Positions 17,268 to 35,014 of a stretch of 64,000 nucleotides of DNA are shown here, piece by piece. The DNA is from an uncultured Pseudomonadota bacterium (lineage in GTDB: Bacteria > Oederibacteriota > Muellerivitia > Muellerivitales > Muellerivitaceae). The stretch is from contig CAVYRH010000005.1 of assembly GCA_963770835.1 (NCBI GenBank), forward strand, positions 288,001-352,000. Reading direction: 5' to 3'. The number at the start of each line of letters is the position of its first letter. The first letter of the stretch is position 1. The notes beneath the pieces were generated by a model. That model searched no databases and was not told where the DNA came from. It was given only the letters and a program-made list of their open reading frames with translations. The position numbers were made by a program, and so were the translations under genes.

Positions 17268-17855
17268 ATGAAGACATTGACTTGGGTTTTTATTATTTTC
17301 ATGGCGGTCTTGGGAGTTTGCCGCGCGCAAGACGATAATCCGGGCGACGGCAATCCAACGGCCACTGCCAAACCCAAATTCCAACCCATCGAGATCCAGA
17401 CCTTCGGGTGGGGGAACCACGCCACGAACGGGTTCTATTACAACGGTTTGCCCCTGACGGATCCGCGGGACTTCGAGCGGGTCATTGACCCCCTCAACGA
17501 CGCCCAGGCCAGCCAAATGCTCCGTTCCGCCGCGGACGAGAGCGGCTGGGGGACGGGCCTTTTGGTGGGGGGTATCGCGTTGGAAGCGGCGGGTTGGGTG
17601 GATTTCACCGTCGTGATGGCATCCTTGGCGTCCGATACCGGGGATAAAGGCCCCGATATAGGACCGTCCTTGATCATGATCCTGGGGGGAACCGGGATAT
17701 GGGTCGGGGGCCTGCTTTTGGATGTCAACGCGGGCAACGACCGCTACAACGCCGTCAATCGCTACAACTATGTGGTCCAGCATGGTAATGGCCTGTCCTT
17801 GATGTTCCTGCCTGATACCCAGAAACCGGGCTTAGCTTTTACCCAACGCTTTTAA
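17268..17855 (+). CDS. Hypothetical exported/membrane protein
   Basis: AAGGAGG RBS, signal peptide, two hydrophobic segments, C-terminal Phe. Confidence 0.7.
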   Translation: MKTLTWVFIIFMAVLGVCRAQDDNPGDGNPTATAKPKFQPIEIQTFGWGNHATNGFYYNGLPLTDPRDFERVIDPLNDAQASQMLRSAADESGWGTGLLVGGIALEAAGWVDFTVVMASLASDTGDKGPDIGPSLIMILGGTGIWVGGLLLDVNAGNDRYNAVNRYNYVVQHGNGLSLMFLPDTQKPGLAFTQRF

Positions 17856-17928: not shown

Positions 17929-17979
17929 TGTCCACGGCGGGGAACCCCGCACCCCAGAGCGGGGCAGTGGCATTGGACA
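17929..17979 (+). repeat. Array site S1 (28-bp dyad site carrying a 23-bp hairpin insert)
   Basis: TGTCCACGGCG-GGGAA[CCCCGCACCCCAGAGCGGGGCAG]T-GGCATTGGACA. Confidence 0.8.
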
Positions 17980-18008
17980 AACAAATTAACCAAATGAAGG
18001 AGGCGATT

Positions 18009-18491
18009 GTGCGGAGATCGAAATCGATAGGGAAGATCAGTTTGGCCCTGGGTCTAATTTTATTGGGCATGAATTATTTGGGCTGCTCAAGCTCTGATAA
18101 CGAAGCCGACAGCAAGGCCTACGTGGATAAAGTTGCGCCGGTCATATTCAAGGATTGGGATACGACTCTTATTTTGGCGGAAGCCGATCCGGATTTGAAG
18201 AATTACGCTGACACAAATAAAGAAGTCTTCGAGAAAGGTATCCAATCCTTCAAGGATGCGGTCGGTTCCATGAAAGCTTACAAAGGCGCAACCCTTTTGG
18301 GAAAACCCACCGAGGGACCGGACCATACAGTTGTTGCCGCTTATTCCGTTGAGGCTGATTTTGAGAAAGGGACCAGTAAGATTATGCTGACCACTACCCT
18401 CCGTGATGGGAAATGGCAGATGGGCCTTTTTAACCTAGATCCGCAGGCTGAGCTACAAAGGATGACAAAGGCCATGACCCCGAACCCCTAA
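18009..18491 (+). CDS. Hypothetical lipoprotein (module S1-S2)
   Basis: GTG start after AAGGAGG, lipobox YLGC. Confidence 0.7.
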   Translation: MRRSKSIGKISLALGLILLGMNYLGCSSSDNEADSKAYVDKVAPVIFKDWDTTLILAEADPDLKNYADTNKEVFEKGIQSFKDAVGSMKAYKGATLLGKPTEGPDHTVVAAYSVEADFEKGTSKIMLTTTLRDGKWQMGLFNLDPQAELQRMTKAMTPNP

Positions 18492-18557
18492 ACAACCGGA
18501 TGAGCCGGGAGTTTCTGCGGCCTTGCTAAACCATTAGTCTTTTGCTGACGAAAACTT

Positions 18558-18585
18558 TGTCCACGACGGGGACCCATCGTGGACA
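18558..18585 (+). repeat. Array site S2 (most symmetric copy)
   Basis: TGTCCACGACG-GGGACC-CATCGTGGACA. The right arm reverse-complements to TGTCCACGATG, a 10/11 match to the left arm. Confidence 0.9.
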
Positions 18586-19385
18586 TCGTGCCAGAGGAGG
18601 GTTTGCAGAGCCAGCAGGTGAGGGAGTAGGCCGATGAGGGTCAACCCAAGTCCTGACCAGGTAATCACCAGAGAGCCTGGAAGTCAGCCCCCGGCGTAGG
18701 ATCGAGAGGTCCTGCCCGAAACGGGGTCATAAACCTCATTTAGTGAGGGAACAATCCAGCAGTCCGCAACATCAAGTGAATCCTGCCGCTTCGTGAATGG
18801 GACACCGAAAGGTGCAAGGGGATGCCGAGCCGCGTGTCTACTGGCGAAGGCCACGATCCCGCTGAAGAATCTGGTAGCAAGCGGGGCAAGTCCTCCGGAG
18901 TATGGGGAACGGAATGTTGGAAAGGCTATGCAAGCAAGCTGGGAGATCCTACCCGCCAAAAGACTTGCCGCTATAAGGCTAAAACCGAAAAGAGGCAAGG
19001 GTGGGAGGAAGTCGGAGGGGGTCACAGTACCGATGAAGGGGTGGACAACAAAACCACCCTGAGGGAAGGACCCCTGCTTCAACCATGTGTCTCAAAGAAG
19101 GTAGGCGCTGGAGCATGCCCCAAAAGGGCCAACAACTCTGTAGTACCAAAGCGCGAGGCCTTTGACAACAGGCACTATGCCGAGCGGCCAAGGGGGAAGT
19201 CGAACCTGTAAAGCCGCCGGAGGAGAGGTTGTCGGAAAGCCGTATGATCGAAAAGGTCACGTACGGTTTGACGAGGGGGCGCTGGAAACGAAGTGATGAG
19301 GGAACCTCGTTGGGGCACGGAACCGGAAACGGGGAAACAGATCAAGGAACCCTCTGCACACCATCGCGCCAGTGCTCTACTCTGC
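18586..19385 (+). mobile_element. ORF-less group II intron (about 800 nt)
   Basis: Domain V AAAGCCGTATGATCGAAAAGGTCACGTACGGTTT (19236-19269, AGC triad). Domain VI GCGCTGG...CCAGTGCTCTACTCTGC. DII/DIII-like GGAAGTCGGAGGGGGTCACAGTACCGATGAAG...GAAGGACCCCTGC. EBS1-like loop in GCCGAGCC...GGCGAAGGC. A decayed IEP N-terminus lies at 19115-19192. Confidence 0.85.
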
Positions 19386-19462
19386 ACCCCGGCCCCGCAA
19401 GGGGGATTGCGAAGCTTGGCGGATGGATACACAATCGTATATACAGAAAAGGAGGTTTTCCA

Positions 19463-19696
19463 ATGAAAATTTTAATTGTCCTTCCCGATGAATTGGGGGC
19501 GGAACTAAAGCATTCCATTCCCGCGCGCCAAAGAAGCCGGTTTGTCGCGGAAGCGGTTGAAAAACAACTCCGGTCGATGAAATTCAAGAAAGTCCTTAAG
19601 AAAACAGCCGGAACATGGACGGATAAAAACCATCCTGATATGACAACCCAAGCCGGTATCAACCGCCACTTGGGCCGAATCCGGGGATGGAAATAA
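19463..19696 (+). CDS. Putative antitoxin (VapB-like, ribbon-helix-helix type)
   Basis: 77 aa after an AAGGAGG RBS, RSRFVAEAVEKQL, directly upstream of a PIN toxin. Confidence 0.7.
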   Translation: MKILIVLPDELGAELKHSIPARQRSRFVAEAVEKQLRSMKFKKVLKKTAGTWTDKNHPDMTTQAGINRHLGRIRGWK

Positions 19697-19705
19697 GCCA
19701 ATCCC

Positions 19706-20095
19706 ATGGCCTACCTGATTGATTCCGACGTCATTATTTGGGCCCTTCGTGGGCGCCCGTCGATAGTGAAACTCTTATTAAACCTCTCCGAGGAAGATTC
19801 CATAGCCTGTTCAGCCATAAATGTTCTGGAGGTAGAAGTCGGAGCCAAACCCCCTGAAATGAAAGCGGTCCGCCAACATTTGGGAAGCTACGAAATACTT
19901 CCGGTTCTCCCCTCAACAGCCCAAAAAGCAGCTGAAATTCTTCGTTCGTCTTCCCGCAAACCTCACCCGGGTGAATGGGCTGACGCGGTTATCGCCGCCA
20001 CGGCCCTACTTAATGATTTAACGTTGGTCACCTTTAACACCCGTCATTACCAATACCCAGGGCTTTCACTTCATACAATGAAGGACTTAATTTAG
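19706..20095 (+). CDS. vapC: VapC-family PIN-domain toxin
   Basis: YLIDSDVII...E...DAVIAATAL...LVTFNTRHY PIN motifs. Confidence 0.88.
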   Translation: MAYLIDSDVIIWALRGRPSIVKLLLNLSEEDSIACSAINVLEVEVGAKPPEMKAVRQHLGSYEILPVLPSTAQKAAEILRSSSRKPHPGEWADAVIAATALLNDLTLVTFNTRHYQYPGLSLHTMKDLI

Positions 20096-20117
20096 GGTTT
20101 TTGGGCGAACGGTAGGT

Positions 20118-20209
20118 TGTCCACGACCTGTCTCCCGACCTGTCCCCCGGAACTTTAGTGCAGGGGGAAGTTCAATGAACGTAGGGAGTACGGGGACCCA
20201 TCAAGGGCC
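20118..20209 (+). repeat. Array site S3 with 64-bp nested palindromic insert
   Basis: TGTCCACGA[20127-20190]CG-GGGACC-CATCAAGGGCC. Confidence 0.8.
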
Positions 20210-20257
20210 AAGAGAAAAAGCGTAAACCAATCTTCGTATAAAGGCATTAATTAAAAG

Positions 20258-20596
20258 ATGAAAAGGAAATATTCGGAATTTTTTGAGGCGAGAAATAGAT
20301 TGGGGCATCAGGTTTTTTGGATGTGGCTTTCCTTTTTCCCCCTCGTGTTTTTAATCGCGGTGTTCTCCAAATGGATCCCGGGAATTGCCGGATTACTTCT
20401 TTCCCTGTTCCTTTTTTATGTTCTTCTGACATTTGGGTTTGGTATCGCCTATTCTTTTTTAAAATGCCCGCGGTGTAAAAAAAAGTTCACTCGGTCTTTA
20501 GACATAAAATTTGAATCGGGCTTGGATTTACTGCGGATATTCAGGGGTAGGCAATGTTCTAATTGCGGGTTGATAATGCCCCGGCCCAAAAAGTGA
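20258..20596 (+). CDS. Small membrane protein with CxxC...CxxC zinc-ribbon-like motif (module S3-S4)
   Basis: Two TM segments then CPRC and CSNC; AT-rich. Confidence 0.65.
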   Translation: MKRKYSEFFEARNRLGHQVFWMWLSFFPLVFLIAVFSKWIPGIAGLLLSLFLFYVLLTFGFGIAYSFLKCPRCKKKFTRSLDIKFESGLDLLRIFRGRQCSNCGLIMPRPKK

Positions 20597-20609
20597 TGGA
20601 TTCAAGGGT

Positions 20610-20637
20610 TGTCCACGGCGGGGAGGCTTATTCGACA
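20610..20637 (+). repeat. Array site S4
   Basis: TGTCCACGGCG-GGGAGG-CTTATTCGACA, 13 bp after the upstream stop. Confidence 0.75.
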
Positions 20638-20975
20638 GGTGAAATTAAAAATAGGACCAAGCGAGGGAATGTGAGACAAAATTCTTTTAGATATTTTATT
20701 TTCTTCATTTTTTTAATGCAGGCTTTTTCTACATCCGCACAAACCTCTGTTTCCGTTGAAGATTCCATGAAAAGGTTGGCCACTGACCCGAATTTTATCG
20801 ATATTACCAACTTCAAAGGCGTCACGATCGACCTCAAATACTCCACAACGGATAACTTTACCGGAACCAACCTGTATGGGAATTTTAAAATAGCTTATCT
20901 TCATAAAATTGCCGCCGGGAAATTAAAAAAAGCAATTGATCTGCTTCAAGCCAGCCACCCCGGTTATCAATTTAT

Positions 20976-22267
20976 GGGCACCTCTAAAAATTCTGTTTGA
21001 AGGCTTTACGGTCACCTCAAACCAGTTTGCAACCCTCAACCAAAGGAGTTCGTGGAAATTTTTGGCCCGGAATCTCCCTTCGGCTACTCCCAGAACCTTT
21101 CCTTAGCCCCCAAAGTCTTTAAAATCTATGCGTTCACTGCCTCCGGACGCATTCGTCCCATTAAGTACGTAAATCGCTGCATGTTGTAAGCCAGGTTCCG
21201 CATTCCTATCTTCATCCGGGCCCTCACCTTGCCCACCACCCTCAACCAGTTTCCACCCATCGCCGTTTCCATGTGCCCGAACACATGCTCGACTCTCGCC
21301 CGAACCTTGGACCGCATCTTGTTCAACTTTTCCTGGAACTCCGTCATGGGATGATTCCGATTCGACTTGTAATGAATCTGGTTGTTATATCGCCTGCGCT
21401 TCAAGGTCTTGTTCTTCTTCTGTGACCGGTATGCGCTGTCTGCCCACACCTTCTTGCGGTTCTCCACGTCCAACAACTCCTCGAAAACCTCCCGGTCGGG
21501 TACCGAAGCCGCCGTCACCTCAAACTTCCGGACCAGCTTGTGTTTCTTATCCACGTTGATATGGTTCTTGTACCCGTAGTGATTCACGCCGTTTTTTTGC
21601 ACCCATCTCGCATCCACGTCTTTTTGCCTCATCTTATCGGTATCCCCCTTCCACTCCTGAGGTGTTTCCCCCTTCTTGATCTGGCCGTTTTCGTCTTTGG
21701 TGTTCCTCTGCCGGGGCACTTCCACTATCGAAGCATCGATGATCTGCCCTTCCTGGGCCTTCAGCCCGACCCGATCCAGGTGCCGGTTGAATTTCCCGAA
21801 CAACTGGTCAATCCAGCCGCCTTGGGCCAGCTTGTTGCGGTATAACCAGATGGTCTTGGCATCCGGCACATCCTTATCCATACCCAGCCCCAAAAACCTC
21901 ATGAAACTCAGCCGGTCCTGGATATGGAATTGTGTCCTTTCGTCCGCCAGGTTGTATAGGGCCTGTAAAACTAGCACCTTGAACATTAGTACTTCATCGT
22001 ACGGGGTACGCCCCGCCTCGCTTTTGCGTTCCTTATCGCGTAATGCCTTGCGCAACATACTGCGGAAATCCTCCCAGGGCACTACTCGGTTCAAGGCTTC
22101 CAGCGGGTCCCCCATTTCATCCAGGGATTTCAAGCGGTCTTGAAGGTCGAAGAATCCGGTTTGGCCCATTGCGGCACCTCGTTCAAGGATTTTTCAGCGT
22201 TTTCACGCGCTGTTTTCTCCTTGTACCTCCTTCACTTCGTCTCTACAACCAATTTTTAGACGTGCCC
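20976..22267 (-). mobile_element. IS5-family insertion sequence
   Basis: 17-bp IRs GGGCACCTCTAAAAATT / AATTTTTAGACGTGCCC (1 mismatch), TTAT target duplication. Confidence 0.92.
21126..22169 (-). CDS. IS5-family DDE transposase
   Basis: VPDAKTIW, IIDASIV, YGYKNH, WADSAY, RARVEHVF. Confidence 0.93.
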   Translation of the reverse strand: MGQTGFFDLQDRLKSLDEMGDPLEALNRVVPWEDFRSMLRKALRDKERKSEAGRTPYDEVLMFKVLVLQALYNLADERTQFHIQDRLSFMRFLGLGMDKDVPDAKTIWLYRNKLAQGGWIDQLFGKFNRHLDRVGLKAQEGQIIDASIVEVPRQRNTKDENGQIKKGETPQEWKGDTDKMRQKDVDARWVQKNGVNHYGYKNHINVDKKHKLVRKFEVTAASVPDREVFEELLDVENRKKVWADSAYRSQKKNKTLKRRRYNNQIHYKSNRNHPMTEFQEKLNKMRSKVRARVEHVFGHMETAMGGNWLRVVGKVRARMKIGMRNLAYNMQRFTYLMGRMRPEAVNA

Positions 22268-22721
22268 TTATCGTTTTTGATGCTTTGCGGCCCCGCTCCG
22301 TTCAATGGGAGCTATGGAATCGCGTTAAAGGCACGGCCCAGCAAAAGTTTGTGGCGACCCCCCAAATGGGCTCAAACCATAATTATGGTCTCGCCGTGGA
22401 TATCGGTCTTTTAGATGAGAATGGAAAATTGCTTGATATGGGCGCGCCCTTTGACGGTTTTACCCCTCTTTCAGAACCCCAACTGGAAAGTAAGTTTTTG
22501 AAAGAGGGGAAATTGACCCCAAAACAGGTGGGTAACCGGCTCATTCTTCGTCGGGCAATGGAAGGCGCCGGATTTATACAATTGCCCCATGAATGGTGGC
22601 ATTATGATGCCTTGAAATCGAAAGACATCCGCGGAAAAATGGAAATTGTGGAATAAAGTTATGTTTTGACTTTGAATAAACCGAAGGCCCATTTTAATCA
22701 AACCTTATGGAGCCGTGACCA

Positions 22722-24365
22722 TTGCCCCAAACTCCAGCCTTATCGGAAACCAAGACCGTTGAAAGGGTTGGGATTCAGCCGTTCCACCGCCTTTACTTTA
22801 AAGCCGCCGCAACCTGTTTCCAAATAAAACGGTCCATCGAAAACAAAAATAATTCCCGAAAACTATTTTCGAAAGGAAATGGGCCCGATTTCCCGTTCTT
22901 ATTGGCTGAATCAAGGTCTTCGATTTTCAGCGACCGGCTCCAAGAACGCCCGTTTGAAAACGGCAAACTTGAAAATCTTAGGATCGCCACTCAAGCCCTG
23001 GACAAACTTGTCGTGGATAAAGGCGCTGAGTTCAGCTTCTGGAATCAAATTGGCAAACCCACTGCAAGCCGCGGCTTCCAGGTGGGACGGGAAATCCGTT
23101 GGGGATGTATGATTCCAGGAGTGGGCGGTGGACTTTGCCAACTATCCGGCGCTCTTTTTGATTGCGCCTTACAAATTGAATCGCAGATCACCGAGGTTCA
23201 CTCCCATACCCGCCGCTTGCCAAATGTCATTTACCGGCCCGAGATGGACGCGACTGTATTTTGGAATTACGTTGATTTATGTTTTAGGCCCCATTTTGAT
23301 ATTCTCATTGAACCCGTTTTTTCCGAGGAATCCTTCATCTTGCGATTTTGGGGGAAATCGCCCCGGACGCCCCACCCCGATAAAACTCCAGGCATCGAAA
23401 AAGCTTTGGCGCATGACTGCCTGGATTGCGGTATCGAGGATTGCCATTATCATGAAAAAACTCAAATCGCCCTGAATTACAAAAACCTTATTTTCAGCCC
23501 CAGCCTTGGACCGCTATCTTTAGTTCAAAGGCTGAAATCCCGTTTTTTATCAATCGCCGCCAGAATTCTTAACCGTGTTTTGAGTTCCCTTTCTTTACCG
23601 GTTGGGAAAATCGCGATCTTTCGTAACCAAGCTTTAGCGTTTTTAGTTAAAACTGTTTATCCCTTCCAAAGATCAACGGCATTAATTTCCCAGGATTTAG
23701 CCCCTTTCCTTAAAAAGTGGCTTCAAAAAGGGAACGTCCCTTATGTCCTTAAGTTGGAACATTTACCGATGAGGGAACTTCAAAACCGGCTCGACATTCT
23801 AGCGGCGCTACATCCCGACGACTTAAGACTTCGGGACTACCGTGTTTCTGAATCTATTAATGAGCATGAGATGGATTGCATTAAAATCGCAAAATCATTA
23901 TTTACCGACCATCCCTATTTAAAAGAACTGTTCCCGGAGGCTGAGTTGAAGATGGATTTGCCGGCCCCCCCGGCCCCGGGTTTTCGAAAGAGCCCGGCGA
24001 AGATGATCCTTTTTCCCGGTCCCTGTTACGCCCGGGAGGGAACCCAGGAGGTGCTACACGCTGCCGGACGGTTGAATCTGGAAGTGCTATGTCCCCATTT
24101 CTCAGCCAAAGGGAAGCCCTTCTTAAAATATGTCGAAAAGGCGGAGATTCCCTGGGAAAAAGTTTTAGTTTACGTCCATCCTTGCGTGTTTGACCGCCCC
24201 AACGAGGTCCTCCTGCAAGTGGTACACCATGGAATTAGGATTGTTGGAACCCTCGGCATTCCTTATCGTGGGGTACTTTTCAGCCAGTGCGCCTTGGGGG
24301 ACGCGATGGATTTGGAGGATAAGCTTCGGCAAATCATAGACTTGAAAGGGGGTTCGTATGTTTAG
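22722..24365 (+). CDS. VanW-family domain protein with C-terminal extension
   Basis: FSFWNQIG, GGGLCQLSGALF, DATVFWNYVDL. Start uncertain. Confidence 0.75.
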   Translation: MPQTPALSETKTVERVGIQPFHRLYFKAAATCFQIKRSIENKNNSRKLFSKGNGPDFPFLLAESRSSIFSDRLQERPFENGKLENLRIATQALDKLVVDKGAEFSFWNQIGKPTASRGFQVGREIRWGCMIPGVGGGLCQLSGALFDCALQIESQITEVHSHTRRLPNVIYRPEMDATVFWNYVDLCFRPHFDILIEPVFSEESFILRFWGKSPRTPHPDKTPGIEKALAHDCLDCGIEDCHYHEKTQIALNYKNLIFSPSLGPLSLVQRLKSRFLSIAARILNRVLSSLSLPVGKIAIFRNQALAFLVKTVYPFQRSTALISQDLAPFLKKWLQKGNVPYVLKLEHLPMRELQNRLDILAALHPDDLRLRDYRVSESINEHEMDCIKIAKSLFTDHPYLKELFPEAELKMDLPAPPAPGFRKSPAKMILFPGPCYAREGTQEVLHAAGRLNLEVLCPHFSAKGKPFLKYVEKAEIPWEKVLVYVHPCVFDRPNEVLLQVVHHGIRIVGTLGIPYRGVLFSQCALGDAMDLEDKLRQIIDLKGGSYV

Positions 24366-25764
24366 AAATGTAATCCTTTGTATCGTGGGGTTTTTAACCC
24401 TTGCAGGAATCACAATGGGGAGGGCTGCCGCGGACCCCGTCCGGGTAATGGCCTTGAGCGCCACCAGTTCCAAGGACGCCCATTTTGACCTTGCGAGCCT
24501 TTTGGATTCCAGCGCCACCACCGGTTGGCAACCCGGCCTTTCCGGCAGCGGCGCAGAGGAGGGTGTCCTCCTCGAGTTTGAAAAACCCGTCAAGGTGGAT
24601 GAGATCCAGCTTTCCGGCACCGATACCTTCAAAGTTTCTTTGAACGGCCGTGAAAATGACAAGATGGGGAATGAATTCAAAATGAAAATCCCCGTGGAAC
24701 TCAAATCCCTTTTCATCCATGTGGCATCCCGCCCCAAGGGGCCAAGCGAATTGAAGGGGTTTAAGCTCCTGCGCAATGGCAACCCCATCGAACTCCAAAA
24801 GCCCTTGATTGTCCGGGGGGAAGTGACAGCCCAGAATGTCCTCGAACCCTTCATCGCCTACGGCCCTTTCCGGCTTTTCGACTCGAAAATCGATATGGCT
24901 TTCGCGATGGACGGGAACAAGATCAACCCTTCGGCGCCGATCCCGCTTTTCGACCTGACCTTTCCAAAATCCCTCCGGCTGAAAGGGTTTTATATCTGGA
25001 ACGGCTATCAGCGGTCGAATCAACACTACTATTCCAACGCCCGCCCGGAAGTTCTCACTGTGGCAAGCGGCGGCCAAAAAGCCCAATTCCCCCTGAAGGA
25101 CGACATGGGGGCCCAGTGGGTGGCCTTTCCGGGAAACGGATGGGATGCTTCCTCACTGCATTTCACGGCCGACAAGGTTTATCCAGGCACCACCTACAAG
25201 GACCTTGTGGTATCGGAGATTTCCTTCGTCACGGAAGACGGCCAAACCCTGCTGGTGGACGCGCAAAAACCGGTGGCGACGGTTTCAAAGGAAATGACGG
25301 GCCTTCTCGACCAATCTTTCAAGTCCTATCCCGACGACGAATACCATTTTGACATTAAGTTTCGAAGCGACGGCACTTTCGCCGCATTCCAGCACAAAAT
25401 CTCGCAGGCCAATACGGACCGCTGCATCTACGAGGGCAATTGGGAAATGAAGGACGCAAGTCATTTGAGGGTATTCGGGCGTTATTACGAGACCTCCCGG
25501 GAGCTGCAGGCCGCCTACGGCGTGGGCACTTCCACCGAGCAATCGGGTATTTTCCAGACTCAGATCCAGGTCACCTCCTTGGACCGCCTCACGCCATCCC
25601 AGAAGAAGGAAATCTACGATTTTGAGAAGGACCGGGCGACCCTACCGGATTTTCCACAAGATGAAGAAACCTTCTGGAAGGCGGCAAAAGAAAAGGGGGG
25701 GATGTTTTTTATCAAATCCAACCTGTTCTCACAGATTATGGTTGCCGATAATATTGAAAAATAG
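24358..25764 (+). CDS. Secreted protein with discoidin/NADase-type glycan-binding-like domains
   Basis: Signal peptide, LLDSSATTGW, IWNGYQRS...NARP, VYPGTTYKDLVVSEI. Confidence 0.55.
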   Translation: MFRNVILCIVGFLTLAGITMGRAAADPVRVMALSATSSKDAHFDLASLLDSSATTGWQPGLSGSGAEEGVLLEFEKPVKVDEIQLSGTDTFKVSLNGRENDKMGNEFKMKIPVELKSLFIHVASRPKGPSELKGFKLLRNGNPIELQKPLIVRGEVTAQNVLEPFIAYGPFRLFDSKIDMAFAMDGNKINPSAPIPLFDLTFPKSLRLKGFYIWNGYQRSNQHYYSNARPEVLTVASGGQKAQFPLKDDMGAQWVAFPGNGWDASSLHFTADKVYPGTTYKDLVVSEISFVTEDGQTLLVDAQKPVATVSKEMTGLLDQSFKSYPDDEYHFDIKFRSDGTFAAFQHKISQANTDRCIYEGNWEMKDASHLRVFGRYYETSRELQAAYGVGTSTEQSGIFQTQIQVTSLDRLTPSQKKEIYDFEKDRATLPDFPQDEETFWKAAKEKGGMFFIKSNLFSQIMVADNIEK

Positions 25765-27013
25765 CCGCCTCTTCCACGGCCTCCCGGCCGTCCTGACGGT
25801 TTTGGTCTTCGGGGCTTGGCTTTTTTCCCGGGCCTATCTGCCTGGTTCGGACGGCTATTACTTTCTCGACCAGGCTGTCGGAATCCTGAACTCGGGCTCG
25901 TTGCGCATCAAAAACCACGACCCGACGCCCTATTTCATCGCGGGACTCATCCGCCTGGGGATCCAGCCCGAACTCAGCGTAAAACTTCTTTTCCTGGCCG
26001 CAACCGGAATGTGGTTTTGGCTGGGCCGCAAGGCTGAAACGGCCCTTTTCTACCTGTTGGCTCCGCTTTTCCTCTTCCACTTGATCCAATTTCCAAAGCT
26101 GACCCTCGCCTTGCTCCTGGCGATCCAGGCTTTCCAATCCCTAGGATGGGGTTCCCGCATTACATGGCTTTCGGGGGCAACCCTCTTCCATCCCATCGGA
26201 TTGGCATCCTGGGCGCTGGCGAAGCTGAGGGATGTGAAACCCTGGGCGCCATGGATCGGTTCGGCGGCATTAGCCGCGGGGTTTGTGGTTTTCGGGTGGT
26301 TCCTCCGGAGCCAGTCCTTTTCCCTCACGCCCGTAGGCGTCAAGTTTTTGGTCAACCCCCATTTGCCCATCCTATTCCGTATTTGTTGCGGGCTTTGGAT
26401 GGGGCGAATGCTTTTCGCCCCACGCCAAGGCTGGCTGGTCCTGGGCCTGCTGGCGCCCAGTTCTTCCGGGGAGTTGTTCGGCAGCCTGGAACGGTGGGAC
26501 TTGGCACTGATACTTTTCTCGCCCTGGCTGCTTTCCCGGGAAAAATGGAACTTTTTTTGGGCCCCCCTGGCCCCCGTTGCAGCCGGATGGATGCTCCTGC
26601 CGATGCCCGTTTACGACTACTCAGTGCTGGACCAGGTGATCGACCTTTCCAAAAACTTGGACATGAAGATGTTGGTGGTGGACCAGACGGGCAAGTTCTA
26701 CTTCACGGCTAAAACCGGCATCGATGCTTATTTTTTCGAACCCGAAGACGGCTGGCCCAAGGAAACCACCTGGAGGCTGGCGCGGAATGTCTCCTCCGGG
26801 GAGCTCTTGCCCTACCTGGAGGGGCCCTGCGCTCCGGGTTCCAAAACCTGGTTTACCCTCAGGCCCGGGACCCTTTTGATACGGGAGGATTGCTGGGAGG
26901 AAATCAGGTCGAAGATCCTTCCAGGCGAGAACGAGGATCTTTACGGCAGGATATGGGACAATCAGTCCAATCCGTCCCACAAACGGCCACCGTTTTTGGA
27001 TATCCGTCATTAG
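25754..27013 (+). CDS. Multi-pass membrane protein (possible GT-C-like)
   Basis: Many hydrophobic segments, GSDGYY early loop. TTG start overlapping the upstream stop is inferred. Confidence 0.55.
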   Translation: MKNSRLFHGLPAVLTVLVFGAWLFSRAYLPGSDGYYFLDQAVGILNSGSLRIKNHDPTPYFIAGLIRLGIQPELSVKLLFLAATGMWFWLGRKAETALFYLLAPLFLFHLIQFPKLTLALLLAIQAFQSLGWGSRITWLSGATLFHPIGLASWALAKLRDVKPWAPWIGSAALAAGFVVFGWFLRSQSFSLTPVGVKFLVNPHLPILFRICCGLWMGRMLFAPRQGWLVLGLLAPSSSGELFGSLERWDLALILFSPWLLSREKWNFFWAPLAPVAAGWMLLPMPVYDYSVLDQVIDLSKNLDMKMLVVDQTGKFYFTAKTGIDAYFFEPEDGWPKETTWRLARNVSSGELLPYLEGPCAPGSKTWFTLRPGTLLIREDCWEEIRSKILPGENEDLYGRIWDNQSNPSHKRPPFLDIRH

Positions 27014-27027
27014 GCTACTGGGAAAAA

Positions 27028-27055
27028 TGTCCACGACGGAGACCCCAAGTGGGCA
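27028..27055 (+). repeat. Array site S5
   Basis: TGTCCACGACG-GAGACC-CCAAGTGGGCA, 14 bp after the upstream stop. Confidence 0.8.
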
Positions 27056-27236
27056 CCCTGAACGTGGAATCCCCGGCCCGATTGTTTGGGTAAAAGATAT
27101 CCCTCCCCTCAAGACCTGCCCCCATCACCGGTTTCCATCAAATAAATTCCCAACCTCTTTTGGACGGCGCTCCTGGGGGGTAAACTGGATGGGTGCCGCG
27201 GGCCTGAAAGCCCGCGTTTTCCGGAAAAGGTGAAGC

Positions 27237-29093
27237 TTGGCTTACCGCCCCTCTCATTTATTTTTCCGCCGAACGGCCCCGACTTTTTTTCTGGTTTGGG
27301 GCCTGGGCGTTTCCTGGGCCCAAACCCCGCCTGCGGGATACAGCCTTTTTTGGAGCGATGAATTCAACGGCGCCGTGGGCAGCGCGCCCAACGGGGCCAA
27401 TTGGACCTATGACACCGGTGACGGCGGCTGGGGCAACGCCGAGCTGGAAAATTACACGACCAGCCTCCAGAACTCCCAGATCATCGCGGACCCCAACGCC
27501 ACCGACGGAAAATCGCTGGCCATCATCGCCCTGGATACCGATCCCGGAAGCACGGCATACGGCACGGTGGGCCGGTACACCTCCGCCCGGCTTTTAACGA
27601 ACGCGGCGGGTTTTCAGGGCGTGACCTTCCAATACGGCTACATGGAAGCCCGCATCCAGATGCCCTATGGCGACGGCATTTGGCCGGCCTTTTGGATGCT
27701 GGGGACCAGCATCAATACGGGCACGGCCTGGCCCAATTGCGGCGAAACCGACATCATGGAAAATATCGGCAAAGCCTCGGACCAGCCCATCAACCACGGT
27801 TCGCTGCACGCGCCCAATTGGAACCCCACCGGCACCTACACCCTTCCGGGCGGGGCGCTTTACCACAACGCCTACCACACCTTCGGCGTGCTTTGGCAGC
27901 CGAACCAAATCGACTTTTACGTGGACGGGACGGATTACGAGACCCAGACCTTGGCCGGCGCCACGGCGGCCGGGGGCACCTGGGAATTCAACACCACCAT
28001 GTTCTTCCTGCTGAACATGGCGGTGGGCGGGAATTACCCAGGAAGCCCCGACGCCAGCACTTCCTTTCCGCAAACCATGCTGGTGGATTACGTGCGGGTC
28101 TACGAGCCCAACACCCCCACCGCGACGCCCAGCGCCTCGCCCACTTCCACGCCTTCCGGGACGCCCACGCCCAGTTCCACCCGGACCGCCACATCCAGCC
28201 CCACTTCCAGCCCTACGGCCACCGCATCGAGGACGGCTTCTTTCACTCCGACGGGCACGGCAACGGCTACGGCGTCCCCGACGGCCACGGCTATCCCCAG
28301 TGAAACTCCTTCCGCGAGCCCCACGGCGACCCGGACGAATACGACGGTCAACAGCCCCACAAATTCGGCCACTGCATCCCCAATAGCTTCGATGACCCCG
28401 TCCGCCACCAAAACGGCGACCGTTACGCCGTCCCTCACCGCTTCGCCGACGCCAACCGCCACACCCAGCGCGACCCCGGCCAATAGTTTGACGAACAGCC
28501 CGACTTTCACTCCAACCTCTTCGGCCACCACATCCCCAACCCCGACGGCTTCGAAGACCCCGACCGCCACCAAAACGGCCACCGTTACGCCGTCCCTCAC
28601 CGCTTCGCCGACGCCAACCGCCACCGGCACCCCCAGCGCGACCCCGGCCAACAGCTTGACGAACAGCCCGACCTTCACTCCGACCCCCTCGGCCACCGGC
28701 ATTCCCACCGCTTCGAACACGGTAACCCCAACGGGGACTTTTACCCCGACACCCAGCCTCACGATCACTTCCACACCGGCCCTTTCCCCCACCTCTTCGC
28801 CCGCCGGGGTGGTAATAGGGCTGCCTTATCCCAACCCCGTGATGGGCTCGGGGCCGGTGACCGTCCAGGTCCAAGCGCCCGCCGGTTCCACCATCGAATG
28901 GAGCGTCTTTACGGCGGCTTTCCGGAAAATAGTGGACGCCTCCCAGCCCGTCCCGGGGGACCACTTCGCCCTGGTTTGGGACCTGGAAGACCAATGGCGC
29001 AAACCCGTGGCCAGCGGTCTTTATTACCTCAGGGTCCAAGTGACCGGCCCGGCCAAGGCCTCCAAAGTCCTGAAGGTCCTGGTCCTCCGTTAG
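27237..29093 (+). CDS. GH16 glycoside hydrolase with Thr/Pro-rich stalk and C-terminal Ig-like domain
   Basis: WSDEF, WGNAELENY, YTSARL, GIWPAFW, GETDIME (ExDxxE), VDYVRVY. C-terminal PYPNP...WDLED...VASGLY. Confidence 0.9.
   Translation: MAYRPSHLFFRRTAPTFFLVWGLGVSWAQTPPAGYSLFWSDEFNGAVGSAPNGANWTYDTGDGGWGNAELENYTTSLQNSQIIADPNATDGKSLAIIALDTDPGSTAYGTVGRYTSARLLTNAAGFQGVTFQYGYMEARIQMPYGDGIWPAFWMLGTSINTGTAWPNCGETDIMENIGKASDQPINHGSLHAPNWNPTGTYTLPGGALYHNAYHTFGVLWQPNQIDFYVDGTDYETQTLAGATAAGGTWEFNTTMFFLLNMAVGGNYPGSPDASTSFPQTMLVDYVRVYEPNTPTATPSASPTSTPSGTPTPSSTRTATSSPTSSPTATASRTASFTPTGTATATASPTATAIPSETPSASPTATRTNTTVNSPTNSATASPIASMTPSATKTATVTPSLTASPTPTATPSATPANSLTNSPTFTPTSSATTSPTPTASKTPTATKTATVTPSLTASPTPTATGTPSATPANSLTNSPTFTPTPSATGIPTASNTVTPTGTFTPTPSLTITSTPALSPTSSPAGVVIGLPYPNPVMGSGPVTVQVQAPAGSTIEWSVFTAAFRKIVDASQPVPGDHFALVWDLEDQWRKPVASGLYYLRVQVTGPAKASKVLKVLVLR
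28402..28699 (+). repeat. 162-bp-period duplication within the GH16 Thr/Pro stalk
   Basis: CCGCCACCAAAACGGC(G/C)ACCGTTACGCCGTCCCTCACCGCTTCGCCGACGCCAACCGCC at 28402 and 28564. Confidence 0.85.
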
Positions 29094-29130
29094 AGCGGGT
29101 TCCGCGGAATTGAAAATGGATTTAATATCT

Positions 29131-29158
29131 TGTCCACGGCGGGGACCCGAATTGGACA
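29131..29158 (+). repeat. Array site S6
   Basis: TGTCCACGGCG-GGGACC-CGAATTGGACA. Confidence 0.88.
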
Positions 29159-29272
29159 ATGAAACAAGGTAATAAGCGAATAAATGAACATCACTTTTTT
29201 AACGGTGAATTGGATAATTAGCCAATTTGGAATACAATCTGAACAAGCAAATGTACGCAAAGGGGATCGATC

Positions 29273-29506
29273 ATGAATCTCGCCGTCAAAGTACCTGTGG
29301 ACCTTGAAAATCTCATCCAACAGCTTTCCGTGAAAGACAAAATCAAGCTGGCCCACGAGCTCGAAAGGCAGACCCGGCGTGAACGTTGGACCCCCCTTCT
29401 CAACCGCATCCAAAAAAGGACCGCAAAGAACCGTTTGAGCGAGAAGGAAATAGTGGCTTTGGTCAAGGAAACCCGCAGGGAATTACGTGGCAAGAGCCGT
29501 CATTGA
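29273..29506 (+). CDS. Putative antitoxin
   Basis: 77 aa, overlaps the downstream PIN toxin, ends LSEKEIVALVKETRRE. Confidence 0.65.
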   Translation: MNLAVKVPVDLENLIQQLSVKDKIKLAHELERQTRRERWTPLLNRIQKRTAKNRLSEKEIVALVKETRRELRGKSRH

Positions 29507-29879
29507 CACCAATATATTAATCAGCATTCTTCTTGGAAGCCGAAATTGTCTCGCCGTTCGAGGGGCTTTCTTGGATGGACTTTTCGAGATAATCACCTCA
29601 CCCGAACTCGTCACCGAGTTTAATGTCGCCTGCCGGAAACCCAAAATCTCAGCATTCGTCAATCCCCATGACATCTTGAATACCCTTGAGCTTCTTAATA
29701 GTGATGCTGAATGGATTTCCCCCGATATCAAAGTTGCCGCCAGCCGCGACTCCAAAGACAATCCTGTTTTGGAATGCGCTGTCGCCGGTCAGGCCGACTT
29801 TATTATTACAGGCGACAAGGATTTGCTTGACCTCAAGTCTTTCCGTGGAATTAAAATTATCACCCCCCGACAATTTTGA
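29487..29879 (+). CDS. PIN-family putative toxin
   Basis: RAVIDTNILIS, RDSKDNPVLECA, IITGDKDLL. Confidence 0.88.
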   Translation: MARAVIDTNILISILLGSRNCLAVRGAFLDGLFEIITSPELVTEFNVACRKPKISAFVNPHDILNTLELLNSDAEWISPDIKVAASRDSKDNPVLECAVAGQADFIITGDKDLLDLKSFRGIKIITPRQF

Positions 29880-29907
29880 TGGTTTTAAAAAGGGATTAAC
29901 TCTGGGC

Positions 29908-30021
29908 TGTCCACGACCTGTCTCCCGACCTGTCCCCCGAAACTTTAGTGCAGGGGAAGTTCAATGAACGTAGGGAGTACGGGGACCCGTTCGACAAGCT
30001 CATGGCAGGCCTCGTCGGACA
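29908..30021 (+). repeat. Array site S7 with two inserts (63 bp and 23 bp)
   Basis: TGTCCACGA[29917-29979]CG-GGGACC[CGTTCGACAAGCTCATGGCAGGC]-CTCGTCGGACA. Symmetry extends to GGGC/GCCC flanks. Confidence 0.82.
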
Positions 30022-30248
30022 GCCCATTTCGAAGAATGAAGATGTTTTTAAACTCCGCAACTTGGCTGGGGAAGGCCATCCCAGATCCTGGCTTCTGAAG
30101 AAATCCCCTGAATAAATAAGCTTTTTTCAACTAATGGGTGAATTTTGGGATTAAACCGGGGGTTCCCCGTCTAGAGGTTGGCGAATATAACGCTGATCCT
30201 GTATCTATCAAAACCTATTGGTTTATCAAGTTTTCGAAGGGGGAGAAT

Positions 30249-30971
30249 ATGGTGAGGAAACCTATTTGGGGGTTGATGATCTCTTGCGTGGCCTTGACCG
30301 GGGTAATTCTAACGGGCTGTATCAAAAAAATCAGCAGTCCTACCGCGCCCCAACCTCCCGCAACCGCCACGGTTGCTTTCACTTCAACCACTACCGCTTC
30401 CAACCAAACGCCCACCGCCACGCCAACGCTCACGGTGTTCAACACCTTTACGCCGACCCCTTGCGTGACGAATACGCCCACGACCGATCCGGGAACCAGC
30501 ACTCCCTCAGCCACGCCGACGCCTTGCGTCACCAACACGCCTGTGGCGACGAACACCTTTACGCCCACGCCCTGCGTCACCGACACGCCTGTTTCGACGA
30601 ACAGTTTCACCCCAACGAACACCACCTCGATCCAGACTCCCACGGCCACGCCGACCCCTTGCGTCACCGATACGCCCGTGGCGACGAAAACCTCCACCCC
30701 GACCTTAACACCCAACGCAACCAATACTCCCACCCACACTGCCACCAACACACCGTCCTCGACCCCCACGGTTACGGGAACTTGGTACACCTCAACCCCC
30801 ACGAATAGTCCCACACCCCGGTTCACGGCCACTCTTTGCATACCCTGCTCTTGGACCCCGTCCGGAACCATCACGCCGGCGGCGACGAATACGCCGACGG
30901 GTTCCTATACCCCCACCAATACCCCCACCCCAACGGGAACCTGGTTTACTCCAACCCCCACTCCGACTTGA
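30249..30971 (+). CDS. Lipoprotein composed almost entirely of Thr/Pro repeats (TPTPCVT)
   Basis: Lipobox LTGC, four TPTPCVT units, no globular domain evident. Confidence 0.7.
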
Positions 30972-30994
30972 TTCGCCATCGAATCCGTTTTGCC

Positions 30995-31030
30995 AAGCCC
31001 CACCCGGGGGTTCCCGGATGGGGCTTTTTT
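30995..31030 (+). terminator. Rho-independent terminator
   Basis: AAGCCCCA-CCCGGG...CCCGGA-TGGGGCTT hairpin followed by a T-run. Confidence 0.7.
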
Positions 31031-31034
31031 ATTT

Positions 31035-31217
31035 CGGAACTATGCACTAGACGTACTTTGCAGTAAAAACCCTCGCCCCTTGGGGGAGAGGGTAGGGTGA
31101 GGGGTGTCATTAGTCGTCAAATTCACCCTCATCCCAGCCTTCTCCCCTCAAGGGAGAAGGTGAAAATAGCAGCCAACAGGTTTTGCTTGTAAATGGTACG
31201 CCAAGTGCATAGTTCCG
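31035..31217. mobile_element. MITE (183 bp) with internal REP-like palindromes
   Basis: 22-bp terminal IRs CGGAACTATGCACTAGACGTAC / GTACGCCAAGTGCATAGTTCCG (2 mismatches), 8-bp duplication TTTTATTT. Confidence 0.85.
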
Positions 31218-31236
31218 TTTTATTTCATGTCAAAAT

Positions 31237-31264
31237 CGTCAATGGTGGGGACCCGCCATGGTCA
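31237..31264 (+). repeat. Array site S8 (divergent arms, conserved spacer)
   Basis: CGTCAATGGTG-GGGACC-CGCCATGGTCA. Confidence 0.6.
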
Positions 31265-31355
31265 AAGCGAGGCAAAACTTTTAACATTTCCGCAACCCCC
31301 TATTCCCGCCTGAGTTTATAATCCCGCTTCGTTTAATCCATTCAAGGCTATCGAA

Positions 31356-33296
31356 ATGCGCTACTGGCTCTTCGCCCTCTTTGTCATGATTAGCCGCTTC
31401 GCTTCCTCCCAGGAAACCGCCACCCCCACTCCCGCACCCAGTTCGAGCCCTACCCCGGGTTTCTACCAGATGAATGAAGTGGTCGTTTACGGGCAACAAT
31501 TGGGAAATAAAATTCTGGAAGGGCCGGACCTGGAAACCTTGGAAGCCGACGGACGCCTGGGGGATCTGCTGGGGGAACTGCCCTCCCTCGAATCCCAGGG
31601 CCTGGGCGGGGCCAAAAGTTTCAGCAACCCCTCGGTGCGGGGAGGGGATACGAACCAGACCGTGATTCTCCTGAACGGGCAAAGGGTGAACCAGGGTTTC
31701 GACCTGGGCACCCTGCCCACCGACGACATTCAAAGCATCGAGCTCATCAAGGGGCCGGGCGCGCTGGCCTATGCCCCCGATGCCACGGGCGGGGTCTTGA
31801 ACATCGTCACGCAAAACGGGGAATCCAAGGGGTTGCTGGGCGCCTCCACCGGCGACTTTGGCACCTACCAATTGCGCGCCGCCACCGGCACCTGGAAAGC
31901 CGGGCCCTGGAAAGCCGGGCCCTGGAAAGCCGGGCCCTGGGAAGCTTCCCTGGGGGGCAACTGGGACCAAACGAACGGCTATGCCGTCAACACCGACCAG
32001 GCCTCCGGCGAGCTGGATCATACCTCGCTCTTCCACTTGGGGGCGGGCCAACTGACCCTGACGGCCCAATACACCTACCGCAATGGCGGGGCCCCCAACG
32101 GCGACAGCCTGGCGGCGCAGGATATCGGCGAATTCGATACCGACGACCGGGGCGAAAAGCAAACCTTCACGGCGGCCCTCCAGGATGAACACCCGCTGGG
32201 CGACTGGGTCCTCGACAGCTCCTTTTCCTACAACTACGCCTATGTCTACCGCTTAAGCCCCCTGCAGGCGGACAACGCGGCGGGGGTCCCTCCCGTGGAC
32301 TTGAACAACTACGATACCTTCGACGGGGCCGCCTCGGCTTCCCTGAAACAGGAAGGCTGGGGCCTGACCCTGGGGCTGGAATTCCGCTCGGAGCAGGTGC
32401 AAGGCACCGAGGGCCTGGACAACGGGGGCACCCGGGAGAATAACGTGCTCTCCCTGGACGCGCGGGGCAGCCTCCGTCTCGCCCCCTCCCTGACGCTCGA
32501 TTGGAGCGGCCGGGTCGACTCTTTCACCGACTACAACACCACGGTTTTCAATCCCGAGGGGACGATCCGCTACGAGTGGGAGCCGGGCCTTTCCCTCTAC
32601 GCCGAGGCGAGCACGGGATACCGCCGGGCGGATTTCGACGAGCTTTACCACCCCAACATCCCCTTCGCCCCCGGCGGTCCCCAGGAATTCGGGGCGGGGG
32701 AAACGGGCAATCCCAACCTGCTTCCGGAAAGCTCGGTCAATGGGGAAGTGGGGGCGAATATGGCCTGGAAAAACCTGGCTTTCCAGGCGGATGGTTTCGC
32801 CGATTTTTATTCCAACCTCATCACCCCGGCACAGGACGGCAACGGGTTCTGGACCTTCGAAAACATCAGCCAAGCCCTTTTGCTCGGGGTCGAGGCAGAT
32901 TTGCGGTGGAGCCTGGCGCCCTGGTTTTCCCCCTACGGAAACTTTCTCTATGTCGATTCCCAGGACCAGCAAACCCAGCAGCCCATCCCCGACCGGTTGA
33001 AGGATAAATTCACAACTGGATTCCGGTCCGAAATCGCACCTGGAGTCGAATAGAACCTGTACACCCAATATGTGGAACATAATCCGGTCCTCTACCAGGG
33101 CGCCTATGATGAGGAAACACCCCTCATCACCACCCTCTCCTATTGGATCTGGAACACGGAATTCAGTGTCCGGGTCGATTCCGGCCTCAAGCTTTTCCTT
33201 AACGGCACCAACCTCTTTAACCGGTACTACGACACCCTCCAGGGCTTACCCATGCCCGGGCGCTACGTCGAGGCGGGAACAACTTGGGGGTTTTAA
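31356..33296 (+). pseudogene. TonB-dependent receptor (BtuB-like) with in-frame TAG at 33051-33053
   Basis: EVVVYG TonB-box-like motif, plug domain (SVRGG...IQSIELIKGPG...GGVLNIVT), GNPNLLPE. The same frame continues after TAG to NLFNRYY...PGRYVEAGTTWGF. Confidence 0.8.
31891..31940 (+). repeat. 15-bp tandem repeat (3.3 copies) inside the TonB receptor
   Basis: CCTGGAAAGCCGGGC x3, encoding WKAGP x3. Confidence 0.9.
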
Positions 33297-33315
33297 ATCG
33301 GAAGGAAATGGGTTC

Positions 33316-33343
33316 CGTCCACGACGGGGACCCGCATTGGTAG
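33316..33343 (+). repeat. Array site S9
   Basis: CGTCCACGACG-GGGACC-CGCATTGGTAG, 19 bp after the receptor stop. Confidence 0.8.
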
Positions 33344-34640: not shown

Positions 34641-35014
34641 TGCTTTATTTTTTTATTTTTTTTCTTTTTGGTCTTACAACGCGAAGGGTTTTAAAACCAA
34701 CTTAATAAAAACGAATGAGTATAGTTGGAGTGACGTGAAACAAATAAATTCCTTAAAATATTCAAATTTTGTTGTGATCGTGACGAAAGATAACTTCGTG
34801 CTTATTTTAACCGCTTCTTTTACCCGTCAATATTTCAAGGTTTTGGCGGATGTTGTTAAGTGTGTCCAAAAAAACAACCCATATGCCTTTATCCCTCCAA
34901 CGCTACTAAAAAAATTAAAAAAACCGCCAAAATTTTACATCTTCTGAGGCCCCAATATTAACCGAATGGTTTTGTTACAATGGCGTAGTTAAAAAGCGCG
35001 GGGAAGGCACTTCA

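Follow-up and report, generated by a model that had tools for sequence, protein, structure and literature searches.

We analysed a 64,000-nucleotide stretch of the genome of an uncultured soil bacterium (assembly GCA_963770835.1, contig CAVYRH010000005.1, positions 288,001 to 352,000 of the forward strand; hereafter the window), in which a row of genes at 17929..33343 is punctuated by copies of a 28-bp site, numbered S1 to S9. It was found that this array is one of about 26 site clusters of a lineage-wide system and carries no recombinase gene of its own. That the sites and the genes between them constitute a family-wide gene-cassette system without integron parts is highly probable. Given such a system, its enzyme is probably a short serine recombinase encoded elsewhere in the genome, and the joint statement, a cassette system that would be run by a naturally truncated serine recombinase, we also consider likely, with slightly more reserve. 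In addition, we lean, more cautiously still, towards a wider proposal: a second, independently evolved integron-type system in which a tRNA-targeting large serine integrase lost its zinc/coiled-coil half, became the direction-free recombinase of a single 13-GA-13 site, and now moves single-gene cassettes, hundreds of them, among many arrays of one genome and from genus to genus in this uncultured bacterial family.

The site was defined with a position weight matrix (PWM) seeded with five window sites. The matrix found 87 sites of at least 20 bits in the 4.58-Mb genome of origin (G000) and 0 in the reversed genome, and a consensus search within the window returned one site against 0.00 expected, so chance is excluded. 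The PWM-derived consensus in this genome is a 13-2-13 palindrome, TGTCCACGACGGG-GA-CCCGTCGTGGACA. A first-pass annotation, made from the window letters alone, had described an 11-6-11 geometry; the 28 bp can be written in that way, yet the asymmetry is confined to the central two bases. GA was present at positions 14-15 in 498 of 522 distinct sites, a count that arises partly by construction, since site orientation was assigned by PWM score. About 20 further sites in G000 are split or length-shifted, 10 of them by one group II intron encoding a reverse transcriptase (RT). The intact sites form 26 clusters genome-wide and are not limited to this locus; several clusters stop at contig ends, and the true number of arrays is possibly below 26.

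An exact pattern search with one genome per species returned 96 stretches; 60 of the 80 listed are titled candidate division FCPU426 and the remaining 20 bear loose labels. Among 40 relatives, the site was present in 21/24 genomes of the family, in the single genome of the sister family (1/1) and in 0/15 others, with reversed controls empty in every genome. Viral contigs gave 0 site matches, and no site was seen in 41 viral loci with homologues.

Neighbouring sites enclose short, mostly co-oriented units. For intervals of up to 6 kb (G000 and fetched loci, n = 373), the two sites pointed the same way in 358/373 pairs; the clustering and common orientation foreseen for a PWM scan of the genome and its relatives were thus observed, and the scattered distribution of a repetitive extragenic palindrome (REP) was not. 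Direct-repeat intervals had a median length of 807 bp and contained just one open reading frame (ORF) in 216 of 358 cases. ORFs ran with the site in 330 of the 351 ORF-holding intervals, and the median distance from the last stop codon to the next site was 20 bp. The cargo comprises toxin–antitoxin (TA) pairs of PIN, PemK, RelE and GNAT type, acetyltransferases and secreted proteins. No Pfam hit was obtained for 31 of 70 array proteins of G000 (69 of the 77 listed ORFs plus cas1 were scanned), and PADLOC found no defence match among 30 chosen cassette proteins, mostly without a Pfam hit (0/30).

Identical cassettes were found with different neighbours, the break falling at the site, which bears out the earlier reading of a site-specific cassette system. 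An 891-bp unit has four locations, and its neighbours vary from one to the next; the window's second TA cassette recurs in G020, a member of another genus, 79% identical, with a site at each end and other neighbours. Where two of the 522 distinct sites had a near-identical upstream flank, the downstream flank was common to only 2/22 pairs; where the downstream flank was near-identical, the upstream flank was common to only 3/22 (intron-followed pairs omitted), and the alignment extended right up to the site in 19/21 and 19/20 such pairs. In most relatives leuA and leuB are adjacent without a site, and in G002 an array of other cassettes precedes leuB; the content of this locus therefore differs between relatives, and the identical content that would have spoken against a cassette system was not seen. 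Comparison thus shows that every junction is a 13-GA-13 palindrome and that cassettes have moved between arrays and between genomes with exchange inside the site; each cassette opens with the right half-site of one junction, continues with a gene or a few genes and closes with the left half-site of the following one.

The position of the exchange was narrowed down with site variants, IS110-flanked sites being omitted from the tallies. Right-arm variants (positions 18-28) followed the downstream cassette in 26/30 informative cells and the upstream one in 7/40, and left-arm variants followed the upstream cassette in 6/12 and the downstream one in 3/13 (random baselines, 0.10 and 0.04). Since the arm variants track their respective cassettes, exchange falls between positions 11 and 18. 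Most site positions are 92-99% conserved; positions 12-15 reach 97-99% and position 16 only 84%, a profile that suits a 2-base core better than a 6-base one.

Several observations detract from this picture of cassettes moving by exchange at a dinucleotide. Counts from genomes this closely related lack independence, and no circle or in vivo event was observed in the assembled contigs. The left-arm signal is weak, and the crossover is bounded only to positions 11-18, which is compatible with the 6-bp overlap of a tyrosine-type enzyme. In addition, the second TA pair is present in G004 without an adjacent site, and the vanW block in G001 (L174) without detectable sites.

The consensus folds as a 12-bp hairpin of -22.4 kcal/mol, and sites lie directly past stop codons and are targeted by IS110-family elements and group II introns. 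Taken by themselves, these features would suit a REP-like or RNA-hairpin marker of safe intergenic spots, with modules moved by illegitimate recombination or by the introns and insertion sequences, and with no dedicated recombinase. REPs and their associated transposases (REP/RAYT systems) are palindromes clustered around a Y1 HUH transposase, with the hairpin conserved. Here that comparison failed: of 11 Y1 transposase matches only one IS200-like copy lay inside an array, no U-tract follows the site, and the halves of the site travel with different flanks. Compensatory changes in the arms were not seen either, the only pair of note, 10/19, having 25 compensated cells where the marginals would give about 22. 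Arm changes are thus uncompensated, which favours a double-stranded protein-binding site over a hairpin substrate, and we think the marker explanation very improbable. The last six bases were also considered as a -35 promoter box, and this was rejected, as no -10 enrichment was present 16-18 bp downstream in 468 flanks. Two further properties of the sites were noticed. Over about 8 bp outward from the 28-mer, on both flanks of all sites, there is a mirrored base bias (a purine, two G/C-rich positions, then A/T-rich positions), which suggests that binding extends beyond the palindrome. At a few sites (L172:1807, L127:7187, L297:4595, L220) the centre is reversed and the genes on either side still run in the array direction; such sites may come from template switching in the palindrome or from assembly error.

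In the integron papers examined, cassette arrays are described as the work of IntI on attC hairpins (PMC8618304). The arrays described here share with sedentary chromosomal integrons and with clusters of attC sites lacking integrases (CALINs) the tandem, co-oriented, mostly single-gene and reshuffled cassettes, the cargo of TA, acetyltransferase and unknown genes, and the occurrence of arrays without an adjacent enzyme (PMC8618304). They differ in that no IntI was found, the site is short and fixed in sequence without compensatory pairing, exchange takes place at the site centre, and the candidate serine enzyme is convergent at the downstream end. A pair of attC core boxes (RYYYAAC/GTTRRRY) lay near 2/87 sites (0.6% of random windows) and was never part of the site, in agreement with the first-pass annotation, which had proposed a site family distinct from attC. 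No attI-like primary site was seen. In G000 (96% complete) IntI was not found: its 12 PF00589 matches all scored at most 79.7 bits on TIGR02249 (cut-off 265). The same search in relatives gave 0/41 matches, and the control genomes likewise gave no match.

The first-pass annotation had favoured a XerC/D-type tyrosine recombinase. A single divergent Xer is in fact present in 23/24 genomes of the family, 1/1 of the sister family and 0/15 others, which is the range of the site, and sites point from origin to terminus in 21/24 testable clusters, the three misses all being in G014. An 11-6-11 site recombined by this Xer could then resemble the dif-module islands of Acinetobacter, which likewise have 28-bp XerCD sites, small modules, TA cargo and chromosomal rows of several modules (PMC12907356, PMC10132070). 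Those modules, however, are bounded by inversely oriented sites (PMC10132070), whereas here the sites are direct (358/373); theirs also resemble the chromosomal dif, whereas the dif-like site of the host is unrelated in sequence to the cassette site. This canonical AT-rich 11-6-11 site, ATA(A/T)-N6-(T/A)TAT, lies just upstream of the xer start in 24/26 loci (the two without it lack the 5' end of the gene); gene direction switches there, and we read it as the putative chromosomal dif. No cassette site was found near xer in the 26 loci. The common range is confounded by descent, and the polarity, which we had considered as a mechanistic clue, follows a strong general gene-strand bias (86/93 and 85/95 long ORFs of contig C11 point toward dif). 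Xer was accordingly rejected as the enzyme, the cassette site being tied to a serine recombinase instead, and we give the Xer explanation very little credence.

Some features of xer itself deserve mention. The family and sister family are apparently without the canonical XerC/XerD pair (L130-L155; G000:C11:156015 region), and the single xer with its upstream dif-like site is an arrangement like XerS/difSL. A second conserved motif occurs on both sides of the xer gene, and a second near-copy of the palindrome lies at G000:C12:15230. Additionally, G000 encodes six related tyrosine integrases of about 365 amino acids (aa), 56-80% identical and mostly beside tRNA-like sequence (C5:233290-242495, C10:70275, C1:7319, C2:210367, C26:882152), a family that recurs in relatives. 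These tRNA-linked integrases were rejected as candidates, because just one of the six comes as near as 1 kb to a site and 96 loci gave no match to them.

At three places in G000 (C3:47167, C15:17231, C16:35972) a site is followed by a 1.5-kb module of cas1 (346 aa, PF01867) with a small cas2-like ORF, and one could imagine capture driven by Cas1, the palindrome acting like a CRISPR repeat and gene-sized pieces like giant spacers. CRISPR spacer acquisition duplicates the whole repeat, and such duplication would not split the site halves between flanks. The three copies exceed 99% identity, have no site at the far end and include one with an internal stop; a fourth copy, which is partial, was located at C3:60757. 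In its behaviour the module is a single cassette that has a right-arm variant of its own, and there was no cas1 match in 96 loci, so that a role of Cas1 in capture is scarcely credible.

The only gene of G000 with a resolvase domain lies on another contig (C17:12078-12905), outside the window, as the first-pass annotation had predicted for the enzyme. It encodes 275 aa and is convergent with a site 15 bp away. Its clade comprises 19 protein clusters of 275-283 aa, 68-100% identical, with intact catalytic motifs. The catalytic and recombinase domains (PF00239 and PF07508) are present and the zinc-ribbon and coiled-coil half is absent in 19/19 members, all of which end just before the zinc ribbon of their relatives of about 510 aa. 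An orphan C-terminal half was not found in the genome or in 209 loci. The best matches of the predicted fold (model pTM 0.48) were large serine integrases. In a tree of 46 rows (19 short proteins and 27 chosen longer homologues) the short clade formed one branch (100/100), and dN/dS, where measurable among 9 genes, was 0.03-0.16; by this measure, the clade is under purifying selection. Its sister group consists of full-length integrases of 507-515 aa from the same order, and in three of the four examined (L194, L195, L207) the gene ends antisense to or inside a tRNA-like sequence, recognised by eye, pointing to a tRNA-targeting ancestor of the short clade.

A site follows 9-111 bp past the stop codon in 10/10 intact short-clade genes with downstream DNA (one of these sites is cut by a contig end, one is split by an intron and one is co-directional), and also follows 4/4 broken copies. 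Not counted were three genes cut at contig ends, of which one is intact and two are partial, and a short fragment that has a site at a distance of 443 bp. In contrast, a site followed full-length or distant homologues at 0/12 loci in site-bearing genomes and at 0/73 other homologue loci, and a search for an ancestral site beside the full-length sister integrases found none at PWM score of at least 0 in 7 loci. The link of the short recombinase to the site is thus strong; its moving of ordinary cassettes we infer. In a subgroup of terminal sites (L017, L056, L118, L044, L193, L198, L222) a distinct right arm is followed by a 14-15-bp palindrome overlapping the recombinase stop codon, and this palindrome is kept where the recombinase gene is lost; it is possible that the terminal site with its palindrome is a preferred site or offers an extra binding site. 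We also considered a split integrase whose C-terminal half would be restored by circularisation, and rejected it, since the site comes only after the stop codon and a search for an orphan half gave none.

Studies of large serine integrases give the geometry a possible meaning. In LI integrase the recombinase domain contacts 13 bp, and a mutant with the coiled coil deleted performs excision with each of the four site pairings tested, selectivity being lost (PMC3783163); this matches a 13-2-13 site used in one form. The large integrases (LI/A118, SPbeta, Bxb1, phiC31) have in common with the enzyme described here the catalytic and recombinase domains, the 13-bp half-site contact and a central dinucleotide (PMC3783163). 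Unlike them, the short clade has no zinc domain or coiled coil and no known basis for attP x attB directionality, and is associated with one symmetric type of site, of which there are about 100 copies. The promiscuous deletion mutants made by engineering are similar to it, except that the short clade occurs naturally and under purifying selection.

The staphylococcal cassette chromosome (SCC), moved by CcrA/B/C, offers a second parallel, with its serine recombinase family, inverted half-sites around a central GA, and tandem accretion with internal att sites (PMC13739063). SCC att sites exchange at the central GA (PMC13739063); here, too, cutting would occur at that dinucleotide. The best NCBIfam hits of the short recombinase were CcrB and CcrA, with 70 and 57 bits where the cut-offs are 900 and 700. 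These CcrA/CcrB models span 442-542 positions, whereas the enzyme here stops before the zinc domain. SCC inserts at one locus (rlmH) and carries ccr (PMC13739063); here there are 26 clusters, the units are single genes of about 0.8 kb without the enzyme, and there are many arrays per genome.

A mechanism can be proposed from these comparisons. The 275-283-aa recombinase, which like a large serine recombinase has the catalytic and recombinase domains but has lost the zinc-ribbon and coiled-coil half, would act on double-stranded DNA: a dimer would occupy both 13-bp arms, cleave around the central GA and recombine the site with any further copy of it. Recombination between direct repeats would release circles with one hybrid site, which could re-insert at another site, and the asymmetric GA would keep re-inserted cassettes co-oriented. 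With no attP/attB distinction, no primary attI-like site would be expected. The enzyme might act in trans on arrays such as that of the window, or arrive occasionally on a unit bearing ArdC/RadC.

The assignment of this enzyme faces a number of difficulties. An intact short recombinase was found in only 4/25 genomes of the family, and a small number of others have fragments; G002, G012, G018 and G023, with 14-40 sites each and 89-99% completeness, yielded none; and in G000 the gene accompanies 1/26 clusters. In G000 and G020 it adjoins an ArdC/RadC module, the position expected of an island integrase, and two sites bracket the recombinase-ArdC-RadC stretch of G000. Biochemically, LI integrase without the zinc domain binds about 25-fold more weakly and without the coiled coil integrates at background level only (PMC3783163), and a second paper reports only small amounts of product (PMC5499577), so that a natural short enzyme would need some compensation for the lost half. 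These facts leave room for a real cassette system in which the short recombinase is only the integrase of an ArdC/RadC island family exploiting the site, the cassettes being moved by another enzyme or by host recombination between the 28-bp repeats. Near-identical cassette ends are indeed shared with G023, where the gene was not found, and four other kinds of element target the site. An enzyme that integrates at the site could, however, also mobilise further units bounded by sites, acting in trans; the G004 gene occupies an array end next to housekeeping genes and has no ArdC module; no other recombinase was found tied to the arrays; and the 13-2-13 geometry fits the domains that the clade has kept. 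We therefore regard the island integrase as an unlikely explanation and retain the short recombinase as the probable enzyme.

Should this hold, gene-cassette capture would have evolved more than once, convergently, in this case with a serine enzyme and a fixed double-stranded site, and attC-based tools would miss such arrays. The clade would also provide a natural test of a question that has so far been approached with engineered mutants: can a large serine recombinase still function, and carry out integration, once its zinc domain and coiled coil are gone? A 275-aa enzyme with a 28-bp site is a possible compact recombination tool, and the arrays amount to a pre-cut library of single genes, many of them without a known family. 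In the literature, searched by titles and abstract openings of mostly non-subscription papers, no account was found of this site, of cassette arrays in FCPU426 or of a cassette array with a serine recombinase.

The site is the target of four kinds of mobile parasite. Type A group II introns enter at its right end and type B introns between positions 11 and 12; an IS110-family element inserts behind one arm or the other; and an insert of 63-64 bp, which sits after position 10, occurs in three copies, two of them in the window, its autonomous partner not being found. Group II introns are similarly attracted by attC (PMC3001079), and insertion sequences target pdif sites (PMC10132070). An RT-encoding type B intron has also landed off-target within an insertion sequence (window 54182-56120; G000:C26:594351), at a partial resemblance to the left arm. 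A further element interrupts the site near positions 19-20 (L129:5649, 9557; L114:6545) and is probably a third group II intron.

In the window, all nine positions given by the first-pass annotation have the left arm, are co-oriented and are intergenic, and their distances from the preceding stop codon (73, 66, 22, 13, 14, 37, 28, 265 and 19 bp) reproduce its range of 13-73 bp with S8 excepted. Its nine 28-bp copies need qualification, as only 6/9 are contiguous 28-mers and S1, S3 and S7 are interrupted; likewise, the spacer GGGACC occurs in 6 of 9 once the inserts are removed, and not otherwise. The modules do differ in GC content (0.43 to 0.63), and Pfam recovered the named cargo: two PIN toxins, a VanX-like peptidase, VanW, GH16 and a TonB receptor. 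New with respect to that annotation are an ORF-less group II intron, an IS5-type element in vanX and an internal stop in the TonB receptor gene.

All sites and cassettes of the array are on the plus strand. S1 (17929..17979) is interrupted by a 23-bp hairpin and scores 29.6 bits once the insert is left out (-9.4 as a plain 28-mer). It is followed by a cassette for a putative lipoprotein without a Pfam family (17980..18557, ORF end 18491) and by S2 (18558..18585), with a single mismatch to the consensus. At the right end of S2 sits the ORF-less type A group II intron (18586..19385, plus strand; Rfam RF02003, RF00029), many genome copies of which exist, almost all behind a site or a site-like right arm. 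No RNA run containing this DNA was listed, and among the contigs of 4 of the 9 public runs one (depth 2) is without these 800 bases. The next cassette (19386..20117) has an antitoxin-like ORF and a PIN toxin (19706-20095, PF01850), and an 85% identical copy follows a site in G002. S3 (20118..20209; -23.6 bits as a plain 28-mer) is split by the 64-bp insert at 20128-20191 and precedes a cassette for a 112-aa hydrophobic protein without a Pfam family (20258..20596).

S4 (20610..20637, 28.7 bits) has a degenerate right arm. The four-gene module behind it (20638..27027) encodes the VanX-like peptidase, VanW, an F5/8-type-domain protein and a membrane protein; the first gene is broken by a minus-strand insertion sequence (20971..22270; DDE transposase at 21126-22169), IS5-like by its domain set. 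A depth-2 contig passes from 20624 straight to 27043, the junction falling exactly behind the GA in both S4 and S5. It was not counted as evidence because, its short side having 30 letters at 88% likeness, the contig could stem from a different array. S5 (27028..27055, 29.1 bits) precedes a GH16 cassette (PF00722) with a Thr/Pro-rich stalk (27237..29093), a homologue of which lies between two sites in G004 (L177), and S6 (29131..29158, 39.4 bits) the second TA pair (29159..29907; ORFs at 29273-29506 and, PIN_3, 29487-29879), the one that is matched from site to site in G020.

S7 (29908..30021; also -23.6 bits as a plain 28-mer) is split by the 63-bp form of the S3 insert and has a second small insert in the right arm. 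Behind it are a cassette for a Thr/Pro-rich protein (30138..30971) and a multicopy, MITE-like (miniature inverted-repeat transposable element) hairpin element with approximate ends (31024..31217, no strand assigned), of which there are many copies in G000 and relatives, with dozens in genomes of the same genus. S8 (31237..31264) is decayed, with 8 mismatches and 13.9 bits. The last cassette, for a TonB-dependent receptor (31356..33296), has an in-frame stop at 33051-33053, and the last site, S9 (33316..33343), has a degenerate right arm and no recombinase gene after it. The array is an aged member of the system, without an enzyme of its own, and the interrupted or decayed sites S1, S3, S7 and S8 probably lock their cassettes in place.

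To the left of S1, a plus-strand gene for a 195-aa secreted protein (17268..17855) is a probable cassette with its upstream site lost, as 86% identical DNA follows a site in G003 (L176). A FecR / 371-aa / NHL-repeat block (10608..17108, plus strand) is probably an older cassette whose sites are lost: no site was found there at PWM threshold 4, and a homologous block lies between two sites in G002 (L175). Because homologues of both follow a site in these two relatives, the array probably once reached further left. Further out, a 2752-aa ORF (276-8534) has no Pfam match.

Beyond S9 lie a minus-strand insertion sequence (33586..34641; HTH_38 and rve, IS30-like by domain set) and leuB (35205..36272, plus strand), the housekeeping flank. 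In this genome leuA is on a different contig (G000:C11:89512-91095), followed by another site cluster, and each of the two genes borders sites. Their separation is possibly a rearrangement between arrays, and the short recombinase may also rearrange the chromosome in this way.

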